Positions 10,487-64,000 of a DNA stretch of 64,000 nucleotides are shown piece by piece. Position 1 is the stretch's first letter. The number at the start of each line of letters is the position of its first letter. Below the pieces are notes generated by a model, which was given only the letters and a program-made list of their open reading frames with translations, searched no databases and had not been told where the DNA came from. The position numbers were made by a program, and so were the translations under genes. Source of the DNA: Alphaproteobacteria bacterium (GTDB taxonomy: Bacteria; Pseudomonadota; Alphaproteobacteria; UBA828); assembly GCA_965214705.1 (NCBI GenBank), contig OZ243972.1, positions 1,376,001-1,440,000 of the forward strand. The letters run 5' to 3'.

Positions 10487-13400
10487 ATGGTAGCCACCCT
10501 CGCCCAGGCCGCCTCGGCCTCGTACTACCTGGAGAGCCAGCGCTCGTTCCGACACCCTAACGAGTACTACACGGCAGGCGAGGAGCCGGACGGGGTGTGG
10601 TTCAATCCCAAGGGCCTACTCGGCCTTGAGAACGGAGGCAAGGTCGACAGCGGCGACTTCCAGCGGCTCTACAATGGCTTCGCGCCGGACGGCTCCAGCA
10701 GGCTCACCAAGAACGCGGGCAGCGAGACGCGCTCGCCGGGCGTGGACATGACCTTCTCGGCCGACAAGAGTGTGTCCACGCTCTGGGCCCTCGCCGATCC
10801 GGCCCTGCGTGGTGAGATCGAGCAGGCTCACAACACCGCCGCCCGGGTGGCCCTGGAAGAGACCGTGTTCCGCTACTGCGCGTATACGCGGATCCGGGAC
10901 AGGGAGGGGCGTATCAGGGTTCTGCCTGCCGATATCTCCGTGGCGATGTTCCAGCACGGCACCAGCCGTGAGAACGACCCGCAGCTTCATACCCACTGCG
11001 TGATCTTCAACGCGGCTCGCACGCACGAGGACGGCAAGTGGCGGGCCATGCACCAGTACCCGGTCTACAGCTGGGCCAAGGCTGCGGGCGCCGTCTACCG
11101 CAATGCCCTGGCCTGGAACCTGCGCGAGCGCCTCGGCATTCGCATGGAGCAGTACGGTCCCAATGCCGGGTTCACCCGCATCCAGGGCATGCCGGAGGAC
11201 CTGCAGGTCTTCTGGTCGAAGCGGCGGAAGGCGATCGTCGCCAAGGCCAGAGAGCTGGGCATTCCCTCGCTCGGCAACGCCTCGCGCATGGCCGGCGTCA
11301 ACAAGCTGACGCGGGCCGGCAAATCCCATGACAACGACCCGGAGGTACGTCACCGGCGCTGGATGGGTGAGGCGGAGGGTTTCGTCGAGCGCGAGGCGCT
11401 GATCGCCTCGGTGACCGGGCACGAAGTGAAGATCGATCAAGAGGCGATCCGGGAGCTGACGGACCGCCTCGACGATCTACCCGCTCACCTGGCTCGGGAA
11501 GAGGCCGTGTTCCGCCGTCCCGACATGGTGGAAGCGGCCGCGAATGCGGCGGCAGGCCTGATCGGCCCCGAAGCGCTGAAGACCTCCATCGAGCGGCTTC
11601 GCCGCAACCCCGAGATCGAGCGGCTGGAGCCGAAGAAGCCGACGGCAGAATCCCTCGCCGGCATGGTGCACACCGAGGTCTATTCCACCCGGCACAACCT
11701 CGGGCTCGAACAGGCCGTGAAGGACATGACGGCGGCCATGGCGACCGATACCGGCCACGGCCTGCCGGAAGAGGCGGTGAAGGAGAAGGTGGACGCACTG
11801 TTGGAGCAGGGATATCCGCTGAGCCAGGAGCAGTCGCTGGCCATCCGTCATGCCACCGTGAAGGGCGGCCGCGTGGTGGTGATCGAGGGTGCGGCGGGCT
11901 CGGGCAAGACCACCACGCTTCGTCCCATCACCGACCTCCACAAGGAGCGCGGCTACGAGATCGTGCCGACTGCAGTCGCCTGGCGCACTGCGGTGGCGCT
12001 CGGCGACGACTGTCACGCCAGGGCCTACTGCGTGGACAAGCTTCTCAAGCTCGCCGCCAAGGAGCAGGTCGAAATTGGCCCCAGAACCCTGATCGTGGTG
12101 GACGAGGCGGGGATGCTGTCCACCCGCCAGGCCCATCACATCCTGCAGCTCTCCGAGCGCCACGGCGCGAAGGTGGTGTTCGCCGGCGACACCCGCCAGC
12201 AGCAGCCGGTGGAGGCCGGCCCTGGGCTGCGGCTGATCCGCGACGTCGCCGGCAGCGTCCGCGTCGACCGCATCAGGCGCCAGAAGGCGGACCTCGAGGA
12301 CGTGCTGGTCCATGTCCACAAGGAGACGCCGGAGCAGGCGCGCTTCAGGGCCGGGCTGACCAATCGGCAGGAGCGCGACGCAATCCTTGCTGAGTACGAA
12401 GCACTGGAGAAGAAGCCCCTGTTCACGCCGTGGCAGCTGGCGGTCTCGGAGGCGCTCAGGGACGGCGAAGCCGAGAAAGCCATCGAGGCGTGGCATGTGC
12501 GCAACCGGATTCATCTCTGCCACGACGAGGAGAAGACGCTCACGAAGCTGGTGGACGACTGGGAGCGCCACGTGCGCGCACAGCCCGGCACGTCCACCGT
12601 CGTGCTCTCGCGCACGAAGGCGGAGGGCCGGGCGTTGTCGTGGCTGATGCGTCAGCGCATTCTCGCGCGGACCCCCGACGCGAAGCGCGCGGTCATCGAG
12701 GTGAGCCGGGACCTGGACGGGCGCCTGACGGAGCCGCTGGAGATCGCGGTGGGCGACCGCATCCGCATCGGCGCCACGCAGTGGGAGAAGCAGCTCTTCA
12801 ACGGCACCGTGGTCACGGTCGAGGACCTCGAAGTCAGGCCCGCAGAAGCTGCGGCGGTGTCGCGCAAGGCCCAGAACCGGCTAGCCGGCGGAGCCGCCGG
12901 GCGCACGGCGGAGCCGGACAGCGGCGCTCCCGAGCCGGAGTACTCCGTCCACATTACCGCGCGCACCGACGATGGGCGGCGCGTCACGTTCCGCCACGAC
13001 GAGATCCGCGACTGGCACGACAACATCCGCCTCGACTACGGCTACGCCATGACCATCGCCTCGGCCCAGGGGTTGACCGTGGACAGGGCGTTCCTCCTGG
13101 TGGACGACCGGCCGGCGCGCGAGACGATCTATCCGGCCGCCACACGGCACCGCGAGGCGCTCGACATCTACGTAAACCGGGCGCCGCTCGCCTTCGACAT
13201 CGCCGAGCACCGGCCGGAGGACGAGGCGGAGCGGCCCGTCCTCGACAGCGACGTCCGGGCGTATCTCGCCGAGCGCTGGTCGCGCTCGCAGCCCAAGGCG
13301 GCGGCTCTCGACTACGTCTCCGGTGGCATGTGGCGGGATGCGCGGGAGGACGCGCAGCATCACGAGCGCGATGCCGGAGACACGCGGCAAGGGACGGCCG

Positions 13401-14596
13401 AGTATCGTGGGCCGGCCAACGACAACGCGCTGATCCGCATCGCCCAGGAGATTCGGCACGCGGTCAACGGCTGGCGACACGGCACGGCAGTAGACGCGTT
13501 TGCGGCCGAGCGCAGCGAGGTTCTGGCGGCCTGGGACCGGCTGCGCGAGCAGGCGCGCGACGAGGGCGACGCGGTGGCGCTGAGCCCGGCCTTCCGCAAG
13601 ACCCTGGGCAGGCACGGCGCCCTGATGAAGCAGGCCGCCTCATTCAGGGCCCGGCCGCGCATATTCGAACGGTTGCTGGCGGAGCGCGCCGGGATCGGTC
13701 AGGGGGAGCTGGAGGAATTGCGCGAGGTGCATGCCCGCGCTCGCAAGTACCTGCGCTCGGTCAGCGCCAGGACGACTTCCGCCACCCGGCAAGCCGCGCA
13801 GCCCGAGGAAGCAAGAACCGGGATCGTTGCGGCGGATGCCCCGGCTCACGTCCCCGAGTCAACCGTCGACGAGCACGCAAAGGTACAGCCGAGCCAGCCG
13901 GCCGCTCCCGATCCCAGGCACGACACCGAACCCACCTGGGAGACCCTATACGACCGGCTGGAGCGCGACTGGAACGAACATGTCACCGTCGCCAACCGGG
14001 CCGGACTGCCGCTCCCGCTCGTGCGCGGGTACGACGAACTGATCGGCCGCGTGCAGGACCTCGCCGAACATCCGCGACTCCCCTCGACGGAGCGGGAGGA
14101 ACTGACAGGACTACTCGACTACCACCGCACGGAGACGGCCGCCCGCAGTGCCGTCCATGACTACGTCGCAGCGGCGGAGCGCCATGTGAAGGCCTTTGAG
14201 CCCCTCCAGCGCGATGCGGAAAGCCAGGGCGTACACGTTTCCGAGGTCGCCGGTTGGCCCGAGTGGCGCCACGAAGCGCAGCGTCTGGCAGAGGCCGGCA
14301 GAGCGATCCTTGCAGACGAGGGCACCTACGGTGCCTATCTTGACGCCCTTGCCGCCGGAAAGCCACGCGCTAGGCTTACGGTCGACCAGTTGCGCACCCG
14401 CATCGAGGACGGACGCGTCAAGGCAGCCAAGCCGGAGATACCCGAACCCCGCCGCGATTCCGCGGCCAAGCAGCAGGAGGGTATCGCGTATGTCCTTGAA
14501 GACCCCGCGAAGCTCAAGGAGCTCAGGGAGCAGCTCAAGAGGCGGGAGCGCCAAGTCGGTAGGCAACACAAGAGAAGCCGGGGCCTCAGCATCTGA
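10487..14596 (+). CDS. MOBF relaxase-helicase (TrwC/TraI/TraA-like)
   Basis: N-terminal YY...YY, DMTFSADKSVS, HGTSRENDPQLHTH (3H motif), Walker A GAAGSGKTT, VVDEAGM, YAMTIASAQGLTVD. Confidence 0.95.
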   Translation: MVATLAQAASASYYLESQRSFRHPNEYYTAGEEPDGVWFNPKGLLGLENGGKVDSGDFQRLYNGFAPDGSSRLTKNAGSETRSPGVDMTFSADKSVSTLWALADPALRGEIEQAHNTAARVALEETVFRYCAYTRIRDREGRIRVLPADISVAMFQHGTSRENDPQLHTHCVIFNAARTHEDGKWRAMHQYPVYSWAKAAGAVYRNALAWNLRERLGIRMEQYGPNAGFTRIQGMPEDLQVFWSKRRKAIVAKARELGIPSLGNASRMAGVNKLTRAGKSHDNDPEVRHRRWMGEAEGFVEREALIASVTGHEVKIDQEAIRELTDRLDDLPAHLAREEAVFRRPDMVEAAANAAAGLIGPEALKTSIERLRRNPEIERLEPKKPTAESLAGMVHTEVYSTRHNLGLEQAVKDMTAAMATDTGHGLPEEAVKEKVDALLEQGYPLSQEQSLAIRHATVKGGRVVVIEGAAGSGKTTTLRPITDLHKERGYEIVPTAVAWRTAVALGDDCHARAYCVDKLLKLAAKEQVEIGPRTLIVVDEAGMLSTRQAHHILQLSERHGAKVVFAGDTRQQQPVEAGPGLRLIRDVAGSVRVDRIRRQKADLEDVLVHVHKETPEQARFRAGLTNRQERDAILAEYEALEKKPLFTPWQLAVSEALRDGEAEKAIEAWHVRNRIHLCHDEEKTLTKLVDDWERHVRAQPGTSTVVLSRTKAEGRALSWLMRQRILARTPDAKRAVIEVSRDLDGRLTEPLEIAVGDRIRIGATQWEKQLFNGTVVTVEDLEVRPAEAAAVSRKAQNRLAGGAAGRTAEPDSGAPEPEYSVHITARTDDGRRVTFRHDEIRDWHDNIRLDYGYAMTIASAQGLTVDRAFLLVDDRPARETIYPAATRHREALDIYVNRAPLAFDIAEHRPEDEAERPVLDSDVRAYLAERWSRSQPKAAALDYVSGGMWRDAREDAQHHERDAGDTRQGTAEYRGPANDNALIRIAQEIRHAVNGWRHGTAVDAFAAERSEVLAAWDRLREQARDEGDAVALSPAFRKTLGRHGALMKQAASFRARPRIFERLLAERAGIGQGELEELREVHARARKYLRSVSARTTSATRQAAQPEEARTGIVAADAPAHVPESTVDEHAKVQPSQPAAPDPRHDTEPTWETLYDRLERDWNEHVTVANRAGLPLPLVRGYDELIGRVQDLAEHPRLPSTEREELTGLLDYHRTETAARSAVHDYVAAAERHVKAFEPLQRDAESQGVHVSEVAGWPEWRHEAQRLAEAGRAILADEGTYGAYLDALAAGKPRARLTVDQLRTRIEDGRVKAAKPEIPEPRRDSAAKQQEGIAYVLEDPAKLKELREQLKRRERQVGRQHKRSRGLSI

Positions 14597-14897
14597 GTCT
14601 CGACGTCGCCCCGATTCCGATTGATGGGGCACCACGAGCGAACCCGCGTTGCCCAGCGACCAAAACAGATGCCGTAATGGGGCACGGCATCAACCTGCAC
14701 CGTTGGAGCCTGTACCGATGGCGGCGAATCGGGGTGTCGTTGCCCTTACACGCTGAGCGTGTCCACGGGGTCTTGCCGAAAGGCGCGCCCCAATCCCTCG
14801 AAAGGAAAGGGCAACGATGGAGTGGACGCCCCCTCCCGACGGCATCGAATCGTGCCAAGGTGGTGTCGTGTTGAACCACCTGAGGAAGGAGGCGTCC

Positions 14898-15827
14898 ATG
14901 GAGAAAGTTACCATCATCGGGATCGACTTGGCGAAGAACAGCTTTCAGCTGCACGGGGCGCGGGATGATGGCTCCGTCGCATTCCGGAAGAAGCTAAGCC
15001 GCGGAAAGTTGCTCGACTTCCTCGCCGGCCAACAATGCTGTGTGGTCGCCATGGAGGCCTGCGCGAGCGCGCACTATTGGGGTCGCGAGGCCCAAGCGCT
15101 TGGACACGAAGTCAAGTTGGTCCCGCCGATCTACGTGAAGCCGTTCGTGAAGCGGCATAAGAACGATATGGCTGACGCGGAGGCGACCACCGAAGCGGCG
15201 CAGCGCCCAACCATGAGATTTGTGGCCGTGAAGACGGAAGAGCAGCAGGCCATGGGGATGCTGTTCCGCACACGCGATCTCCTGGTACGCCAGCGCACGC
15301 AAACGATCAATGCTCTGCGGGGTCACTTGGCGGAGTTCGGCGTCATCGCTCCGCAGGGGCCGGCTCATGTCAGTCGGTTGGAAGCAGCACTCATGGATCC
15401 GGGCTCGGGGCTACCGGAGGGGGTTCGTGAACTGGGTGGCCTTCTGCTGGAGCAGATCGCGGGCCTCAACTTGAAGATCGTCGGTTTGGAGAAGGAGCTC
15501 CGCGCCTGCGCGCGCCAGGACGAAGAAGCTTCGCGACTGATGACGATACCAGGCGTCGGGCCGATCACCGCAATGGCGGTTCAAGCATTCGCGCCTCCGA
15601 TGGAGAGCTTCCGTCGCGGGCGCGACTTCGCCGCGTGGCTCGGGCTCGTTCCAAGGCAGCACACGACCGGCGGCAAGCCGAGGCTGGGCAAGATATCCAA
15701 GATGGGCCAACGTGATCTCAGACGGCTCTTGGTCGTGGGTGCCATGGCGGAGATCGCTTGGGTAGTTCGTCGCGGCACCACAAAGGATCCGTGGTTGCTC
15801 AGTATGATGGAGCGCAAACCGCGCAAG
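14898..15827 (+). pseudogene. IS1111-A transposase/recombinase, N-terminal 310 codons
   Basis: GIDLAK, MEAC, KNDMADA, IPGVG, GLVPRQHTTGG; the frame breaks at ...ERKPRK. Confidence 0.92.
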
Positions 15828-15830
15828 GTT

Positions 15831-15872
15831 AAGGGTTGGGCAGGCTCTCTCTCGAGAGCCTGCCCAACCCTT
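15831..15872. repeat. Perfect 19-bp-stem hairpin at the oriIS end
   Basis: AAGGGTTGGGCAGGCTCTC-TCTC-GAGAGCCTGCCCAACCCTT. Confidence 0.95.
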
Positions 15873-16134
15873 TTGAACGAAGCCGCGGGCCACGAGAGGC
15901 GAAGTTGAGCTATGTGGAAAGTGCGCTGATGTCAGCGTCAGGCGGCATCCACCGGCAGCAGAGTTGCGCATGAGATCGACGCTCGCGCCGGCCTTTCGGC
16001 AGGCATGCGGGCGCACGCTGCGAGGACTGAGCGGGATGTGAGCCGAGGGCTGTCAGCCCGGCCCAAGCGGAGACAGGTTCGGTCGTGCGTCGGCGCTTTG
16101 GCGCCGTTGCGCGGGGCCGAAGCGAGCGGGCGTC

Positions 16135-17187
16135 TCACGGTTTCCCCCTGTGGGTCGGCGGCACGGCCGGCGGACCGCGCGTCGAGCGGGGCTCATGGCG
16201 GCGGCGGATTTCGCGGACGAGGCGCATGACGCCGCCGCAGTGGGGGCAGGCCACGGGCGCGGTGCCGATCTCGGGCTCTTCGTCGGGCTCGGCCTGAGCG
16301 CCGTCCACGCTTCCCTCGGGGGCGGCGCAGCCGAGGGCGCCGAGAGCCTGGCGTGCTCTCTCCAGCGTGCTGGCGCGGCAGCCGTTGGCGAGAATGCCGA
16401 AGTAGCGGATGCGGTGCATGCCGTCCGGCAGGACGTGCATCAGGAAGCGGCGGATGAACTCGTCTGCGCTCACGGTGGCGATGCCGTAGCGCGGCTTTCT
16501 CTGCCCCGGCGCCTTCGGCTTGCGGTGGCGGAAGGAGACCGTCTCGCCGTCGAAGGAGACGATGCGGCTGTCGGAGATGGCGATTCTGTGAGTGTAGTGC
16601 GACAGGTACCGGAAGACCTGCTCAGGCCCGCGGAAGGGCCGCTTGGCGTAGACCACCCAGTCCCTGGCCCGGGCGGCGGCAAGCGTGGCGTGGAACTCGC
16701 CGGGATTGGCGAGGTGGGCGACGGTGCCGTGGAACTCCAGGTCCCCCCGGCCGTGGGCGCGGGCGAGCTCCTTGAGGAAGAGGCGGCGGAACAGGCTGCC
16801 GAGGACCTTGACGGGGGCGAGGAAGGTGGTGCTCCCCGTCTTCCACTCGCCGCTGTCTACGTCGAAGCCCGCGTTGGGCACGACCACGTGCAGGTGCGGG
16901 TGGAAGCGGAGCTTCTGATCCCAGGTATGGAGGACCGCGGTGCCGCCGATGCGCATGCCACCGTGGTGGGGATCGGCGGCGATGGTGCGCAGGGTCTCGG
17001 CGACGGCCCGGAAGAGGATGTCGAACACCACCCTTCGGTTGCAGAAGGCAATGGCGGCGACCTCCTTGGGCAGGGTGAAGACCACATGGAAGTAGGGCAC
17101 CGGCAGGATGTCCCCGGCGCGGGCCTCGCTCCAGAGGTTGGCGGCGAGACCCTGGCAGGTCGGGCAGTGGCGGTTGCGGCAGGAGTT
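16135..17187 (-). pseudogene. IS91-family (Y2 HUH) transposase, C-terminal part
   Basis: NSCRNRHCPTCQ, YFHVVFTLP, LHTW...HPHLH (HUH), YLSHY (YxxxY), RIRYFG, CPHC. Confidence 0.92.
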
Positions 17188-17199
17188 CTTATGAGCTCT

Positions 17200-17532
17200 C
17201 TCCGCAAGGCCCGGCTTCATCTACGTCAATGGCATTCGCAATCTCTCCACTCGAATCCGCGGCCGATGTCCAGGCAGAACGTCGTTTCCACGCAGCGATC
17301 CGCCACGCTGCTCAGCTCTTATCCGGTTCGGAACTCCGGCGCTTGCCGGCTCCGTGACCCCAATACCGCATCCAGGCGGTGGTGACGTTCCGGGAGGCGG
17401 GACCCATCTGTAGAACGGTGCCAAGCGGCGACCCAACTCTTGCCCGGTCACACGCCTTGCCCGGCATCCTCCGCGGCCGCGTCCGACCACGTCGGAACCT
17501 CCTGTATTTTCCCGTTCGTTCGGCCGGTGCCC
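17200..17532 (-). ncRNA. Putative bridge/seek RNA of IS1111-B (boundaries approximate)
   Basis: Non-coding region downstream of tnp containing segments that match both target arms and both donor-junction arms, separated by hairpins. Confidence 0.75.
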
Positions 17533-18729
17533 TCAGGAGACGATGGCGCCCTCAGGCACCAGTCCTTGGGTGGCATAGCGCCACAGCGCGATCAGCAGCT
17601 TGCGCGCGACCCCCACGATCGCCCGCTTCCTCGCTCGCCGGTCCCTCCCGCCACCGGCATCCCTGGCGACGTAGGCGTGGAACCACTTCGTGATCGCGCT
17701 TTCCGGTTGCAGCTTCAGCCAGCGCCAAGCCATCTGGATCATGTGCTTCCTGACATGCGAGGGGCCGGCCTTGCTGATGCCAAGATCGTGGTCGACATCT
17801 CCGCTCGCCCACGGCACCGACGTCAACCCGGCCCAGCTGCCCAACTCCCGGCGATTGCGGAAGTCCCGATAGAACACCTCGCCAGCCAGCAGTGTGGCGT
17901 CATTGAGGCCGATGCCATGGATGCGCGTAAGCGCCGCGATCATCGCCGTCCCGTCACGATTGGTCGCGTCCTGGGCTTTCCGGCCAGCCTTCAGCAGGGC
18001 CCTCTTCTCGGCCTCGATCATCTCGATATGCTCCTCAACCAGGCGAAGCATCCCCACCGCCCTCTCAATCTCTGCCCGCGCACGCGGCGGCAACGGCGCC
18101 CCATAGCCCGTCCGCGCGGTCGCGAGGCGTTCGAGGAAGTCCGGCTTGCGCGGCGCCAGATCGAAGATGCCGTGCAACTGCAAGAGCCCTTTGATCCGGT
18201 TGTTGACGCGGGTACGCTCGCTGATCAGCGTGTCCCTCTCGCGCAGCAGGCGCTTGGCATCCTCCTGGTCCACATCGGGCACGCGCACCCAGGACATGGC
18301 CTCCGAATCGCCTTGGTCCCATGCCTTCAGAGCCCGAACCATCCTCCTCGCGTCGATACGGTCGGTCTTTTTCTTCTTGGCGCGCCGGTTCACCCGCAGG
18401 CTCGCCGGATCGTTCATGAAGATATCGATCTCCGCGTCACGGCGCTCGATATCGCGGGCAAGCCAGAACCCCTCGTAGCCCGCCTCGTAGGTCAGCATCA
18501 CCCGAGGACGGGCGCCGAGCTCCCTCGCCACCCGTTCCCGCACCGACCCGACGAGATCCAACAGTCCCGCCGTGTCGGCAGCAGCCAGTGTGTGGATGCT
18601 GATGCTGCCACCCGAGGCATCCGGGCAATGCACGCCAACGATCCACGATTTGAGGCTGATCTCCACCGCGACATAAATCGTGCTACTACTTGCGCCTGTC
18701 AGCGCGGTCGTGTCTGGACCATCCGACAT
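17533..18729 (-). CDS. IS110-family transposase/recombinase (IS1111-B)
   Basis: VAVEIS..W, YEAGYEGFWL, KTDRIDA, IHGIG, PWASG (catalytic Ser), ISKAG, VARKLLIALW. Confidence 0.92.
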   Translation of the reverse strand: MSDGPDTTALTGASSSTIYVAVEISLKSWIVGVHCPDASGGSISIHTLAAADTAGLLDLVGSVRERVARELGARPRVMLTYEAGYEGFWLARDIERRDAEIDIFMNDPASLRVNRRAKKKKTDRIDARRMVRALKAWDQGDSEAMSWVRVPDVDQEDAKRLLRERDTLISERTRVNNRIKGLLQLHGIFDLAPRKPDFLERLATARTGYGAPLPPRARAEIERAVGMLRLVEEHIEMIEAEKRALLKAGRKAQDATNRDGTAMIAALTRIHGIGLNDATLLAGEVFYRDFRNRRELGSWAGLTSVPWASGDVDHDLGISKAGPSHVRKHMIQMAWRWLKLQPESAITKWFHAYVARDAGGGRDRRARKRAIVGVARKLLIALWRYATQGLVPEGAIVS

Positions 18730-18837
18730 CCGTCCACTCCGTTGTTGACGATTCCGCTCGGAGAGAAGGTGCTGGCCTTCTCTCCGAGCTTGTCTAACCG
18801 CCAGAATCGATTCGGTGCCACCGTGCTCATGGTATCT

Positions 18838-19026
18838 GAAGAGCGGATGCTCGCGCCCGCAGCCCTCGCAGGCGTACATGTGGCCGCCGAGCACGGCGGT
18901 GCGGCACGCCTCGATGGCGCCCATGACCTTGAGCCGGGCGGCGTCGATGCGCCCTTTGTGGCGCTCACGGAAAGCGGCGCCGGCGCGGCGGAGGATCTCC
19001 GCCACGCCCGCGCGTTCGGCCTCCAC
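18838..19026 (-). pseudogene. IS91-family transposase, N-terminal 63 codons
   Basis: VAEILRR...AIEACRTAVLGGH..CEGC (first half of the Zn-binding domain). Confidence 0.9.
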
Positions 19027-19032
19027 GCGCCG

Positions 19033-19911
19033 TCAGTTGCGCAACGCTGCGAAGCCTGAGATCGGGTGGTCGAGGCCCTCGAACATCTTGCCGGTGACGC
19101 GGGCGTAGTGACGGGTCGTGTTCGCGCTTCGATGGCCGAGCATGTCCCGGATCACCTCGATATCGCCGCCGCGCTCGAGGAGATGGGTCGCCGCCGAATG
19201 GCGCAGGCAATGGAAGGTGTAGCTGCGGTCGAGCTCGGCAATGTCGCGCGCCCTCCTGAAGGCGGCCTGCAAGGTCTCCGTTGCGATGGGCCTGTCGAGC
19301 GAGACGCCGTAGAAGAGCCAGCTCGTCGGACGCGGCCAGATGTTCCTGTAGTAGGCGCGCAAGTAGTGGATGACGATGTCCGGCAACGGTGCCATTCTCT
19401 CGGTGCCGCCTTTGCCGGAGGGGATGTGCAGCAGCTTCTTCTCCGACAGGATGTCGCCGACCTTGATGGCCAAGGTCTCGGAGATGCGGAGCCCGCCGCC
19501 ATAGCCGGTGACAATGGCAGCACGGTGGCGGAGGTCGGGCGTCGCAAGGATGAGGTGCTCGACCTCCTGCTCCGACATGTAGCGCGGCAGCTTGCCGGGC
19601 TTCTTGCGGGAGCGCAGGCCGGCGACGTGGTCAGGCCAGCCGAGTGTGTCGATGTAGAGGAAGTTCAGCGCGGCGAAGGAGACGTTGGTCGTGCCCGGAC
19701 TGAGCCCCTTGTCGATCCGCCCCAGGTACCACTGGCGCACCTGCTCGGCGTCGAGCTCGTCCGGCGAGGCGTCGTAGTACCTGGCCAGGTTCTTGATCTC
19801 GCAGATGTAGGCCTTGGACGTGCTCGCGGCCAGATTGGCGATGCGGAGCTGCTCCTCCATGCGCTGGCGAAGAGGGGTGACGGTGTTCGTGTCGCACGCG
19901 GTCCCGGTCAT
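19033..19911 (-). CDS. Tyrosine recombinase (integron-integrase-like N-terminal SAM domain)
   Basis: PLRQRM...; catalytic R (GLRISE), K (GKGG), HCLRH, LGH, Y (TRHYA). Confidence 0.93.
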   Translation of the reverse strand: MTGTACDTNTVTPLRQRMEEQLRIANLAASTSKAYICEIKNLARYYDASPDELDAEQVRQWYLGRIDKGLSPGTTNVSFAALNFLYIDTLGWPDHVAGLRSRKKPGKLPRYMSEQEVEHLILATPDLRHRAAIVTGYGGGLRISETLAIKVGDILSEKKLLHIPSGKGGTERMAPLPDIVIHYLRAYYRNIWPRPTSWLFYGVSLDRPIATETLQAAFRRARDIAELDRSYTFHCLRHSAATHLLERGGDIEVIRDMLGHRSANTTRHYARVTGKMFEGLDHPISGFAALRN

Positions 19912-20143
19912 TATCGATCTCCCTGGATCGCGACGGCGCGCCGCCGGACCGATCCGGCGACGGTCCGTCGCAGGGGTCGATGCTAACCACTGGTGATCGG
20001 GAGGCTGCTGGGGATCCGCCACCCGACGGGCGGAGCGCCACTGACGCAACCGGGAAGCGAACGCACAGAACAAACGGCACCCGCGACGCCTCGGAAATGA
20101 ATGAACTCTACGCCGCTAACTCCGCGTAGCGGCTTCGTTCAAG

Positions 20144-20245
20144 GTCGTCGCCATCGCGTTGGCCAACCGCATGGCGCGCATCATCTGGGCACTGAACACT
20201 AAAAAGGAGCTCTACCAAGCTCCCGCCGCCGCCCTACAAGGGTGA
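20144..20245 (+). pseudogene. IS1111-A transposase, C-terminal 33 codons
   Basis: VVAIALANRMARIIWAL...* continues the frame interrupted at 15827. Confidence 0.92.
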
Positions 20246-20480
20246 ATGGCGGGCAGCCGTTGGGGGGATGTGAGCAGGTCGGAGGATCGGTAAGGGCAAA
20301 CGGTCAATGAGACGGGATCGGGAAAACCAGTTTCAATGTCAGAGTTTCGAACTCGGGGCAACGATATGGACTCGATCCTCGCATCTCCATACGGGCCAGC
20401 GGCGGCTGAATGCCGCACCAACAGGCCGGATAGACGACTGTACCTGACCACATGCACCAAGCCGTCCAAAAAAAGTGCTT
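20246..20480 (+). ncRNA. Putative bridge/seek RNA of IS1111-A (boundaries approximate)
   Basis: Contains GAAAACC and GGGCAACG (target arms) and CTCCAT and ATAGACGA (donor-junction arms) within stem-loops. Confidence 0.8.
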
Positions 20481-20929
20481 GCATCACCGGGGGCGTCCAT
20501 AGACGGTTTTCGCCTGTCCCGCTCGTCAGGTGAACTCCATGTCGCCGCAATGCGGCCAAGCCTTCACAGCGCTCGTATGAAGCCACCGGGCACGTTCTCC
20601 GATCGCGGCCTCGTCCCAACCGGAAGACCTCTCTGGCCGGCATCACACTCACCGACATCCGCGTCGTGATGCTCGCTCCACGTAGAATCTCCTGCGAAGC
20701 ATACCGAATGCTGCACCGAAACCAGATCGAATTGGCAACAGGGCGGCCAGGACGTTACACATGAAGTAGGTGAAGAAGTACGTTCCTTCCAGTAATAGAG
20801 ATAGATCGACCCGTGATATGCTACGGCTGTGCGGTCCGGCTGATGACGTCGCAGCGTCTCATCTGAGTCAACACCACGCAGTTGGGCAGCTTCTAACCCA
20901 ATTGGAGGCACCGACGGAGGACTTGGACG

Positions 20930-21766
20930 ATGTGTGAGCCGAAGCGTACCGCCGTGATTTATGATTTCGACGGAACGCTCGCCCGTGGCAATCTACAAGA
21001 GACCAGCTTCATTCCGAAAATCGATATGAGCAAAGAGGATTTCTGGACCGAGGTGAAGGCTCGAACCCGCAATCATGATGCCGATGAAGTTCTCGTCTAC
21101 ATGCACCTCATGCTCGACATGGCGCAAGAAAAGGGCGTCAAAGTGACCATCGAAGACCTGCGGCGACATGGCAAGAAAGCTCGGCTCTTTCCCGGTCTCT
21201 CGGACCGGTCATGGTTCGAACGCATCAACCAGCACGCCGCAACACGCGGCCTCGCCCTTGAGCACTACATCGTCTCCTCGGGCATTTACGAGATGATCGA
21301 TGGATGCTCGATCCGCGATGCCTTCCGCCGAGTGTTTGCGTCAAAGTTTATCTATGTTGACGGTGTGGCGGCTTGGCCGGGTGTTGGTATCAACTACACG
21401 ACAAAGACCCAATATTTGTTTCGGATAAACAAGGGCATCGATAACCACTGGGACAACGCCTCCCTCAACAGCTTCATGCCGGAAGACGAGCGCCCGATCC
21501 CGTTCGACCGTATGATCTTCTTGGGAGACGGAGATACCGATATTCCGACCATGAAAACGCTTACCTACATGGGTGGTCACTCGATCGGAGTCTATGATTC
21601 TAATGGGCACAGCCGCGACCTCACCAAAATCCACAGACTGATTTCCGATGGCCGTGTCGACTTCGTGGCACCTGCTGACTATGAGGAGAAGTCGCAGCTC
21701 GACATCATCATTAAGGGCATCCTCGGGCGCATCGCGAGAAAGTACGGATACAGGCCCTCAGCATGA
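20930..21766 (+). CDS. HAD-superfamily hydrolase/phosphatase
   Basis: Motif I YDFDGTL, motif II IVSSG, motif III K (TTKTQ), motif IV GDGDTD; GGAGG RBS. Confidence 0.9.
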   Translation: MCEPKRTAVIYDFDGTLARGNLQETSFIPKIDMSKEDFWTEVKARTRNHDADEVLVYMHLMLDMAQEKGVKVTIEDLRRHGKKARLFPGLSDRSWFERINQHAATRGLALEHYIVSSGIYEMIDGCSIRDAFRRVFASKFIYVDGVAAWPGVGINYTTKTQYLFRINKGIDNHWDNASLNSFMPEDERPIPFDRMIFLGDGDTDIPTMKTLTYMGGHSIGVYDSNGHSRDLTKIHRLISDGRVDFVAPADYEEKSQLDIIIKGILGRIARKYGYRPSA

Positions 21767-63368: not shown

Positions 63369-64000
63369 GTTAAGGGTTGGGCAGGCTCTCTCTCGAGAGC
63401 CTGCCCAACCCTTTTGAACGAAGCCGCGGGCCACGAGAGGCGAAGTTGAGCTATGTGGAAAGTGCGCTGATGTCAGCGTCAGGCGGCATCCACCGGCAGC
63501 AGAGTTGCGCATAAAATCGACGCTCGCGCCGGTCTTTCGGCAGGCATGCGGGCGCACGCTGCGAGGACTGAGCGGGGTGTGAGCCGAGGGCTGTCAGCCC
63601 GGCTCAAGCGGAGACAGGTTCGGTCGTGCGTCGGCGCTTTGGCGCCGTTGCGCGGGGCCGAAGCGAGCGGGCGTCTCACGGTTTCCCCCTGTGGGTCGGC
63701 GGCAGCGCCGGCGGGCCGCGCGTCGAGCGGGGCTCATGGCGGCGGCGGATTTCGCGGACGAGGCGCATGACGCCGCCGCAGTGGGGGCAGGCCACGGGCG
63801 CGGTGCCGATCTCGGGCTCTTCGTCGGGCTCGGCCCGAGCGCCGTCCACGCTTCCCTCGGGGGCGGCGCAGCCGAGGGCGCCGAGAGCCTGGCGTGCTCT
63901 CTCCAGCGTGCTGGCGCGGCAGCCGTTGGCGAGGATGCCGAAGTAGCGAATGCGGTGCATGCCGTCCGGCAGGACGTGCCTCAGGAAGCGGCGGATGAAC
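63369..64000 (-). mobile_element. Second copy of the IS91-like element (oriIS end and transposase 3' end; runs off the window)
   Basis: Near-identical to about 15828-16460 with scattered SNPs; again preceded by CAAG. Confidence 0.93.

Follow-up and report, generated by a model that had tools for sequence, protein, structure and literature searches.

We analyzed a 64,000-nucleotide stretch of an alphaproteobacterial genome (assembly GCA_965214705.1, contig OZ243972.1, positions 1,376,001 to 1,440,000; hereafter the window), in which four mobile elements are nested in one another. From the outermost to the innermost layer, these are a remnant of an IS110-family insertion sequence (IS) that we call IS-C, an IS1111 element (A, 14815-20503), an IS91-like element (15828-20143), and a further member of the IS110 superfamily (B, 17188-18837). 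B is a specialized hyperparasite of this IS91-like family, whose transposase gene it splits at one base in about one fifth of the copies. The source genome (7.9 Mb in three contigs, without N) is overrun by insertion sequences, with ~95 IS91-like copies and many other IS. Positions elsewhere in this genome are given below with the prefixes C1, C2, and C3.

Open reading frames (ORFs) of the window were scanned for Pfam domains, and the layers were removed in silico by script. The ORF at 14817-15908(+) carries DEDD_Tnp_IS110 and Transposase_20, whereas that at 16135-17220(-) carries Y2_Tnp (1e-54) and only positions 47-90 of Zn_Tnp_IS91. The missing half of the latter domain, positions 1-48, opens the ORF at 17533-19026(-), which then continues into IS110-type domains, and the ORF at 19033-20073(-) encodes a tyrosine recombinase. 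Excising B restores a 413-residue IS91-type transposase whose gene had been cut after codon 63, and excising the entire IS91-like layer restores a 343-residue IS110-type transposase whose gene had been cut after exactly 310 codons. The original prediction, made from the letters of this DNA alone, had described A, the IS91-like element, and B in this order, had placed B within the zinc-binding domain, and had reported both reopened frames. All of this was reproduced, with coordinates exact to the base when compared to uninterrupted copies and relatives. The prediction had missed the fourth, outermost layer as well as the site specificity of B for the IS91-like element. It had also held that each insertion inactivates its host transposase; both genes are indeed cut, one in its zinc-binding domain and the other before its last 33 residues. 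For A, loss of function is only likely. The 33 C-terminal residues are conserved at 0.85, compared to 0.86 for the rest of the protein (mean top-residue frequency, 21 family members), and the gene is parted from its own guide region and right end by 4.3 kb.

Without B, the IS91-like element measures 2666 bp. The B-free join occurs 66 times in the same genome as an exact 28-mer, and 67 full-length uninterrupted copies span it at 98.2-99.2% identity, with 2664-2666 aligned bases in 66 of them. A total of 94 left ends and 97 right ends in the genome agree with termini at 15828 and 20143, within a register ambiguity of 1-4 bases. At this locus the register is ambiguous because the left end of the element resembles its CTTG target, and the family consensus register of 15827-20142 is an equally valid description of the same event. 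A, in contrast, is present as a single copy in the genome. Three relatives at 75% identity align unbroken over the IS91 junction, from 14815 to ~20499, and their flanks diverge at the same points as the ends of A. The 12-bp subterminal repeat, which A has in common with its relatives and which is followed outward by extensions of 7 bases on the left and 3 bases on the right, places A at exactly 14815-20503. The original prediction had named different boundaries in uninterrupted relatives as the observation that would speak against the nest; the 67 IS91-like copies and the three relatives of A have the same boundaries. No uninterrupted copy of A is found in its own genome, and no A rejoined at 15827>20144 was seen in the contigs of four public sequencing runs from four studies. 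These contigs drop rare forms and are therefore uninformative on rare excision.

The IS91-like element has the hallmarks of the IS91 family. Its transposase is of the Y2/HUH rolling-circle type and begins with the zinc-binding domain that B has split, and plasmid relatives are annotated “IS91 family transposase” by the Prokaryotic Genome Annotation Pipeline (PGAP). IS91 elements insert beside a CTTG or GTTC tetranucleotide at their right end and generate no duplication. The element examined here likewise lacks a target duplication and has a CTTG-type tetranucleotide at its right end: the four bases next to ...CCCTTAAC are C in 91, T in 69, T in 80, and G in 51 of the 97 right ends. The left end begins TTGAACGAA, with a variable base before it. 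The right end carries a perfect hairpin with arms of 19 bases and a loop of 4 bases (15831-15872), which is kept in the other copies. A second IS91-like copy, free of B, begins at window position 63369 and continues past the end of the window at 64000.

The site specificity of B is evident from its distribution in the genome. Nineteen of 21 B-family left ends follow the same flank, ...TCCGCTCTTC, at the same base, including those of B variants with 96% and 92% identity. One B copy occupies this same base in an IS91 relative that is only ~78% identical. Exact 14-mers on both sides of B are found for 17 copies, compared to 66 empty sites, and the site is unoccupied in 73 IS91-like copies overall. 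Most B copies are identical to one another, and the copy in the window, which is apparently intact, differs from other full copies by one base (17375). The 13 occupied IS91-like copies that could be fully aligned represent 13 different loci and 10 IS91 haplotypes, and 7 of these haplotypes also occur among unoccupied copies. This sharing favors repeated insertion of B over the spread of one composite, and suggests that the B insertions were independent of one another.

In PLSDB, only 4 records gave short, distant matches to B and none contains the whole element, and in 40 related genomes nothing above 71% identity was found outside the window’s own genome. Relatives of the B transposase were identified at only 3 loci. 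The closest of these, with 88% protein identity, is in a metagenome-assembled genome (MAG) of Defluviicoccus sp., at a site that is not IS91-like. Two further arrangements involving B were observed. An IS66-family element with an 8-bp duplication lies inside B in three IS91-like::B copies (C2:518994-523403, C3:1713791-1718200, and C3:687404-691813), such that triple nests recur in this genome. At C1:1873053-1874866, the last 165 bases of B occur a second time immediately after a full copy, and the IS91-like flank continues from there. In addition, the 497-residue fusion frame created by the insertion (Table 1) could couple expression of B to the start codon of its host, although an open frame of this kind may be due to chance.

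The original prediction assigned both A and B to IS1111, and this name fits the two elements to different degrees. As described in PMC11187229, IS1111 elements have subterminal repeats of ~11-13 bp, extensions of 7 and 3 bases, no target duplication, a downstream noncoding region, and a transposase of 330-350 residues. The same source describes a guide, the seekRNA, in which the top-strand complement is positioned 5′ to the bottom-strand segment. A exhibits all of these characteristics: 12-bp subterminal inverted repeats with one mismatch, the extensions CGATGGA and AGA in a pattern common to loci of its family, a DEDD transposase of 343 residues once the interrupting layer is removed, a downstream noncoding region, and a predicted seekRNA in the expected order, as judged by sequence and covariation. 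B shares the extensions (AGATACC and AAG), the downstream noncoding region, and the top-before-bottom guide order. However, its subterminal repeat (18830-18823 and 17198-17191) is perfect over only 6 bases and extends to 8 if one mismatch is allowed, and its transposase of 398 residues, with domains of the IS110 superfamily, is longer than the range for IS1111. Because of the short repeat and the long protein, B is best described as having an IS1111-type architecture within the IS110 superfamily.

Within the 3′ noncoding region of B, a short stem is predicted to enclose two guide segments separated by a hairpin. The top-strand guide matches the right flank at the IS91 site at 9 of 11 positions. 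A B variant with 96.7% identity carries the same guide and resides among IS21-like and Mu-like transposase genes (C3:428447-430095; L016 4448-6096; empty site between C1:621480 and C1:621479), where the match at the IS21-like element is 11 of 11. Two more distant elements, an 86% variant (B86) and an 85% copy from a MAG (L013), have top-strand guides that each match their own flank at 9 of 11 positions, compared to 4-7 of 11 for noncognate guide and flank pairs in this set. Thus, the top-strand guide changes in step with the target in both B86 and L013. The bottom-strand guide has the sense of the left flank and the first bases of the element, and one of its positions varies with that flank. 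The genome also contains the two empty sites of B86 (C3:1422148 and C1:4120317); the occupied site (C3:483684-485333) lacks one adenine found in both.

The larger family of A permits a stronger comparison. Relatives are encoded at 80 public loci, of which 61 have identifiable ends with the expected spacing, and these represent 25 guide types. For the top-strand guide, 7 or more of 9 positions match the cognate right flank in 19 of the 25 types, compared to 24 of 600 noncognate pairs. For the bottom-strand guide, 6 or more of 7 positions match the cognate left flank in 16 of the 25 types, compared to 16 of 600. The consensus fold of the family was derived from 17 members, with 5 of 22 sequences left out because they lacked an anchor (L021, L022, L024, L032, and L086). 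It consists of an outer stem, guide, hairpin, guide, and stem, with compensatory changes in both the inner hairpin and the outer stem. These matches suggest that RNA guides the insertion of both B and A at this locus. In two MAG loci (L022 and L025), an A relative was found inside the noncoding region of another A relative, with flanks corresponding to the conserved 3′ region of the family.

The guide of A also bears on the outermost layer. The 152 nucleotides preceding A closely match the leaders of IS-C copies at C1:602266, C1:1325752, and C3:3042091, which continue directly into an IS110-type transposase. A full IS-C copy has the upstream noncoding leader and the DEDD transposase of the IS110 family (DEDD_Tnp_IS110 and Transposase_20), whereas the window holds only the leader and lacks the remainder. 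We considered whether these 152 nucleotides might instead be the leader of A itself, but rejected this possibility because in relatives of A the element begins at the equivalent of 14815 and the left flanks are unrelated, and because the segment continues into a different transposase elsewhere. On the left, where A adjoins the end of the IS-C leader, its bottom-strand guide agrees with the flank at 6 of 7 positions. On the right, its top-strand guide fits the continuation of IS-C at 7 of 9 positions, compared to only 4 of 9 for the flank now present and at most 5 of 9 for the 25 other right flanks. These fits suggest that the most likely target of A was an intact IS-C, at a position directly ahead of the ATG, and that the remainder of IS-C was lost afterward, with moderate confidence for the right side. 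No empty site for the present pair of A flanks exists in the genome, where the sequence at 20480-21000 is unique. A TrwC-type relaxase/helicase of 1369 residues (10487-14596, +) ends 70 bases 5′ of the IS-C remnant, which places the nest in a conjugative-element region of the 4.17-Mb contig.

Table 1. Layers of the nest and predicted guide segments, with positions in the window
Feature	Position	Strand	Support
IS-C remnant (152-nt 5′ leader, IS110 family)	14666-14817	+	96-97% identity to full IS-C leaders
A, left part: 7-base extension, left subterminal repeat (14822-14833), transposase codons 1-310 (14898-15827)	14815-15827	+	
IS91-like element, 3′ part: terminal hairpin (15831-15872), transposase codons 64-413 (17187-16135), Y2/HUH domain	15828-17187	-	
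B, 1650 bp: transposase (18729-17533, 398 residues), 345-nt 3′ noncoding region (17532-17188)	17188-18837	-	
B, predicted seekRNA-like target loop: top-strand guide (17445-17435), inner hairpin (17434-17417), bottom-strand guide (17416-17406)	17406-17445	-	Guide-to-flank matches; covariation in B86, B89 fragment, and MAG copy L013
In-frame fusion ORF, 497 residues: 63 IS91-type transposase codons, 36 codons of the B 5′ untranslated region, B transposase	17533-19026	-	
IS91-like element, 5′ part: tyrosine recombinase ORF (20073-19033), transposase codons 1-63 (19026-18838), first half of zinc-binding domain	18838-20143	-	
A, right part: codons 311-343 and stop (20144-20245), noncoding region (20246-20503), right subterminal repeat (20489-20500), 3-base extension (20501-20503)	20144-20503	+	
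A, predicted seekRNA-like target loop: outer stem (20314-20322/20371-20378), top-strand guide (20331-20341), hairpin (20342-20354), bottom-strand guide core (20355-20364)	20314-20378	+	Consensus fold; covariation

Given these characteristics, we favor, with a probability of about 85%, an explanation in which four successive transposition events built the nest, with A and B placed by their own guide RNAs and the IS91-like element placed by its preference for CTTG. First, IS-C would have landed downstream of the TrwC-type relaxase gene. The seek or bridge RNA encoded near the 3′ end of A would then have directed A to the junction of the IS-C leader and start codon, and the remaining ~1.5 kb of IS-C would have been lost at a later time. 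Next, the 2666-bp IS91-like element would have entered the transposase gene of A beside CTTG after codon 310, without duplication. Finally, the guide RNA of B would have directed this element to its fixed site among the codons for the zinc-binding domain of the IS91-type transposase. The order of these last two steps is one that we infer.

Several observations weigh against this explanation. The site that best matches the top-strand guide of B, at 11 of 11 positions, is not the IS91 site, and the bottom-strand guide matches the IS91 left flank at only 5 of 7 positions, in a small set where cognate and noncognate pairs are poorly separated. No Rfam family matches at E ≤ 1 over positions 14400-20900, and minimum free energy folds of the two noncoding regions are not clearly better than those of shuffled sequences (z of -1.16 and -2.13). 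With regard to IS-C as the right-side target of A, a match of 7 of 9 is also reached by 4% of noncognate pairs. The haplotypes shared between occupied and empty IS91-like copies could come from recombination among copies. Moreover, the IS91 haplotype in the window is unique, and consequently an entry of B before the landing in A is not distinguishable from an entry after it.

The alternative that survives best is that B inserted only once and that the resulting IS91::B composite was then spread in trans by intact IS91-like transposases, in which case the window copy may have entered A already carrying B. Rolling-circle elements of the IS91 type need only their ends, and the 67 intact copies could supply the transposase. 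Likewise, the occupied copies all reside at different loci, most with the usual CTTG-like right flank, and the near uniformity of the B copies would follow from such spread. However, a single founding insertion does not readily produce 10 haplotypes, 7 of them in common with empty copies, nor does it account for the diverged B variants and the ~78% IS91 relative in which the same base was hit. Spread of one composite is thus distinctly unlikely as the sole explanation, but repeated insertion and trans-mobilization of IS91::B may both contribute.

Another possibility is that the B transposase reads the IS91 site directly, and that the complementarity of the guide is a coincidence. The weak match of B to its left flank is compatible with recognition by protein only. 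In contrast, guide and flank change together in B86, in L013, and among the 25 guide types of the A family, and RNA guidance has been demonstrated for members of both IS1111 and IS110 (PMC11187229; PMC11208160). Recognition by protein alone is therefore very unlikely.

The nest could in principle be an artifact of assembly, created by the misjoining of repeats. Both the IS91-like and the B repeats exceed the length of short reads, none of the contigs from the public runs spans a whole layer, and the presence of B inside this particular IS91-like copy is read from the assembly, as the short contigs are shorter than the repeat. Nevertheless, the genome is assembled in three contigs without N, and the same join of B into IS91-like sequence is found 19 times. 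Furthermore, contigs of one run, X1, agree with the window without a single difference on both sides of this layer. One stretch (15125-15852) covers the passage from A to the IS91-like end, and another (20116-20700) begins in the opposite IS91-like end and crosses the right part of A to reach unique flanking sequence. At the two junctions between A and the IS91-like element, these contigs enter the repeat by only 25 and 28 bases, which is below a 31-base rule. Among the four runs, only X1 exhibits a single-copy depth of A, and it is possibly the source sample. Contigs of all four runs contain the B-free join, and all four contain B at ~0.2-0.35 of the depth of the IS91-like element. We consider a misassembly extremely unlikely on these grounds. 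Equally unlikely is an untargeted pile-up of three chance hits in an IS-rich region. The abundance of IS makes some nesting expected, and the IS91-like step into A needs only CTTG. However, chance is already contradicted for B by the 19 of 21 copies at one base, and for both B and A by guide segments that match and covary with their flanks (6 of 7 for the left flank of A).

The original prediction proposed that scarless excision of B could reactivate the IS91 layer, but this proposal is weak. Two B-free IS91-like copies (C1:3005654 and C2:15382) carry an insertion or deletion (indel) exactly at the B site. One of the two has gained AG, the first two bases of B, such that its frame is shifted, whereas the other has lost the 3 bases after the site and retains its frame. 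Internal indel events in 77 aligned IS91-like copies number only four in addition to the inserted AG, and two of these five at one position is far beyond chance. The two alleles are best read as scars of B, left by either imperfect loss or an insertion that was aborted, and the target is destroyed in each. The 66 clean empty sites are compatible both with loss of B and with no prior insertion. Precise excision has reportedly been found for IS492, to judge by a title. For IS621, excision is described as less efficient than insertion (PMC13626964), and a copy-out route in which the donor is kept intact has been argued for IS110-family elements in preprints (10.64898/2026.08.31.748434; 10.1101/2025.10.25.684509). 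Thus, reactivation of this particular IS91-like copy is possible but is not the expected outcome, and it would change little in a genome with 67 intact copies.

We speculate, with the odds clearly against this broader view, that B functions as an RNA-guided “IS killer” that recognizes a conserved string in the IS91-type transposase gene and is engaged in an arms race with its host element, and, separately, that the guide of A preserves a record of a target since deleted. The homing of B could then resemble that of homing elements that use a site their host cannot easily change. An ongoing IS91-like expansion would be disabled by B in about one fifth of its copies, and the B transposase may be expressed by in-frame read-through from the start codon of the host gene. 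The alleles with the added AG and the in-frame 3-base deletion may accordingly represent either scars or escape alleles that are immune to B. If guides preserve records of deleted targets generally, as that of A may do, their sequences could be used to reconstruct lost states of genomes.

The genome provides a natural data set of ~92 near-identical target sites, 19 occupied and 73 empty. It also offers single-base and indel variants of the site, an imperfect guide for the most-used target, and two related elements with covarying guides. Such data bear on the natural tolerance of mismatches, on the scarring that accompanies loss of an element, and on the mutual restraint of mobile elements. For annotation, the guide segments of IS1111-type elements can reveal whether a flanking sequence is the original target, and here they expose a deletion beside A.

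Comparisons with known systems place the IS91-like element within its family. It shares Y2_Tnp and Zn_Tnp_IS91 domains, the lack of a duplication, and the CTTG-type flank and hairpin at the right end with IS91 elements, but differs in having an upstream tyrosine recombinase gene. Some members of the IS91 family do carry a tyrosine recombinase.

For B, the closest precedents are elements that target other mobile elements. IS4321 and IS5075 are said in titles to home into Tn21-type repeats. Like IS1111-type elements that home into terminal repeats, B has subterminal repeats, inserts in one orientation without duplication, and uses a fixed sequence of another mobile element. In contrast, its target is inside a transposase coding sequence, its transposase has 398 residues, and its subterminal repeat is short. 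According to the title of Muller et al. 2001, IS1383 reportedly targets the inverted repeats of IS1384 in Pseudomonas putida H, and it would thus be another IS110-superfamily element with a specific IS as its target. As compared by title, the target of IS1383 is the ends of an IS, whereas that of B is a transposase gene. No report of B-type homing into an IS91-type transposase was found in the titles and abstract openings among the literature matches listed, a scope without subscription journals, ISFinder, and supplementary tables.

The predicted RNAs of A and B can be compared to those of ISEc11, ISKpn4, ISPst6, and ISPa11 (PMC11187229), with which they share a downstream noncoding region, extensions of 7 and 3 bases, and two guides with the top-strand segment before the bottom-strand segment. 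Natural reprogramming between relatives has been reported for seekRNA systems in the same source. However, the targets of those elements are a short linear site, attC sites, which some members of this superfamily are known to use (PMC11187229), or REP sequences, and the RNAs described herein are predicted. The bridge RNA of IS621 (PMC11208160; PMC13626964) likewise has an internal loop in which a hairpin is flanked by two guides, and its system shares a dinucleotide core between donor and target. Within the A family, most of the listed loci carry CG or TG both at the left end and following the right end. Unlike these RNAs, that of IS621 is encoded at the 5′ end of the element, and the target and donor of B differ at the second base of the core (AA compared to AG).

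Homing of this superfamily into other mobile elements is already established, and the nest described here is an unusually clear natural example of such guided behavior. What is new is that the target is the coding sequence of an IS91-type transposase, that homing has occurred on this scale within one genome, that alleles interpretable as scars accompany it, and that a guide could be used to infer a deleted target.

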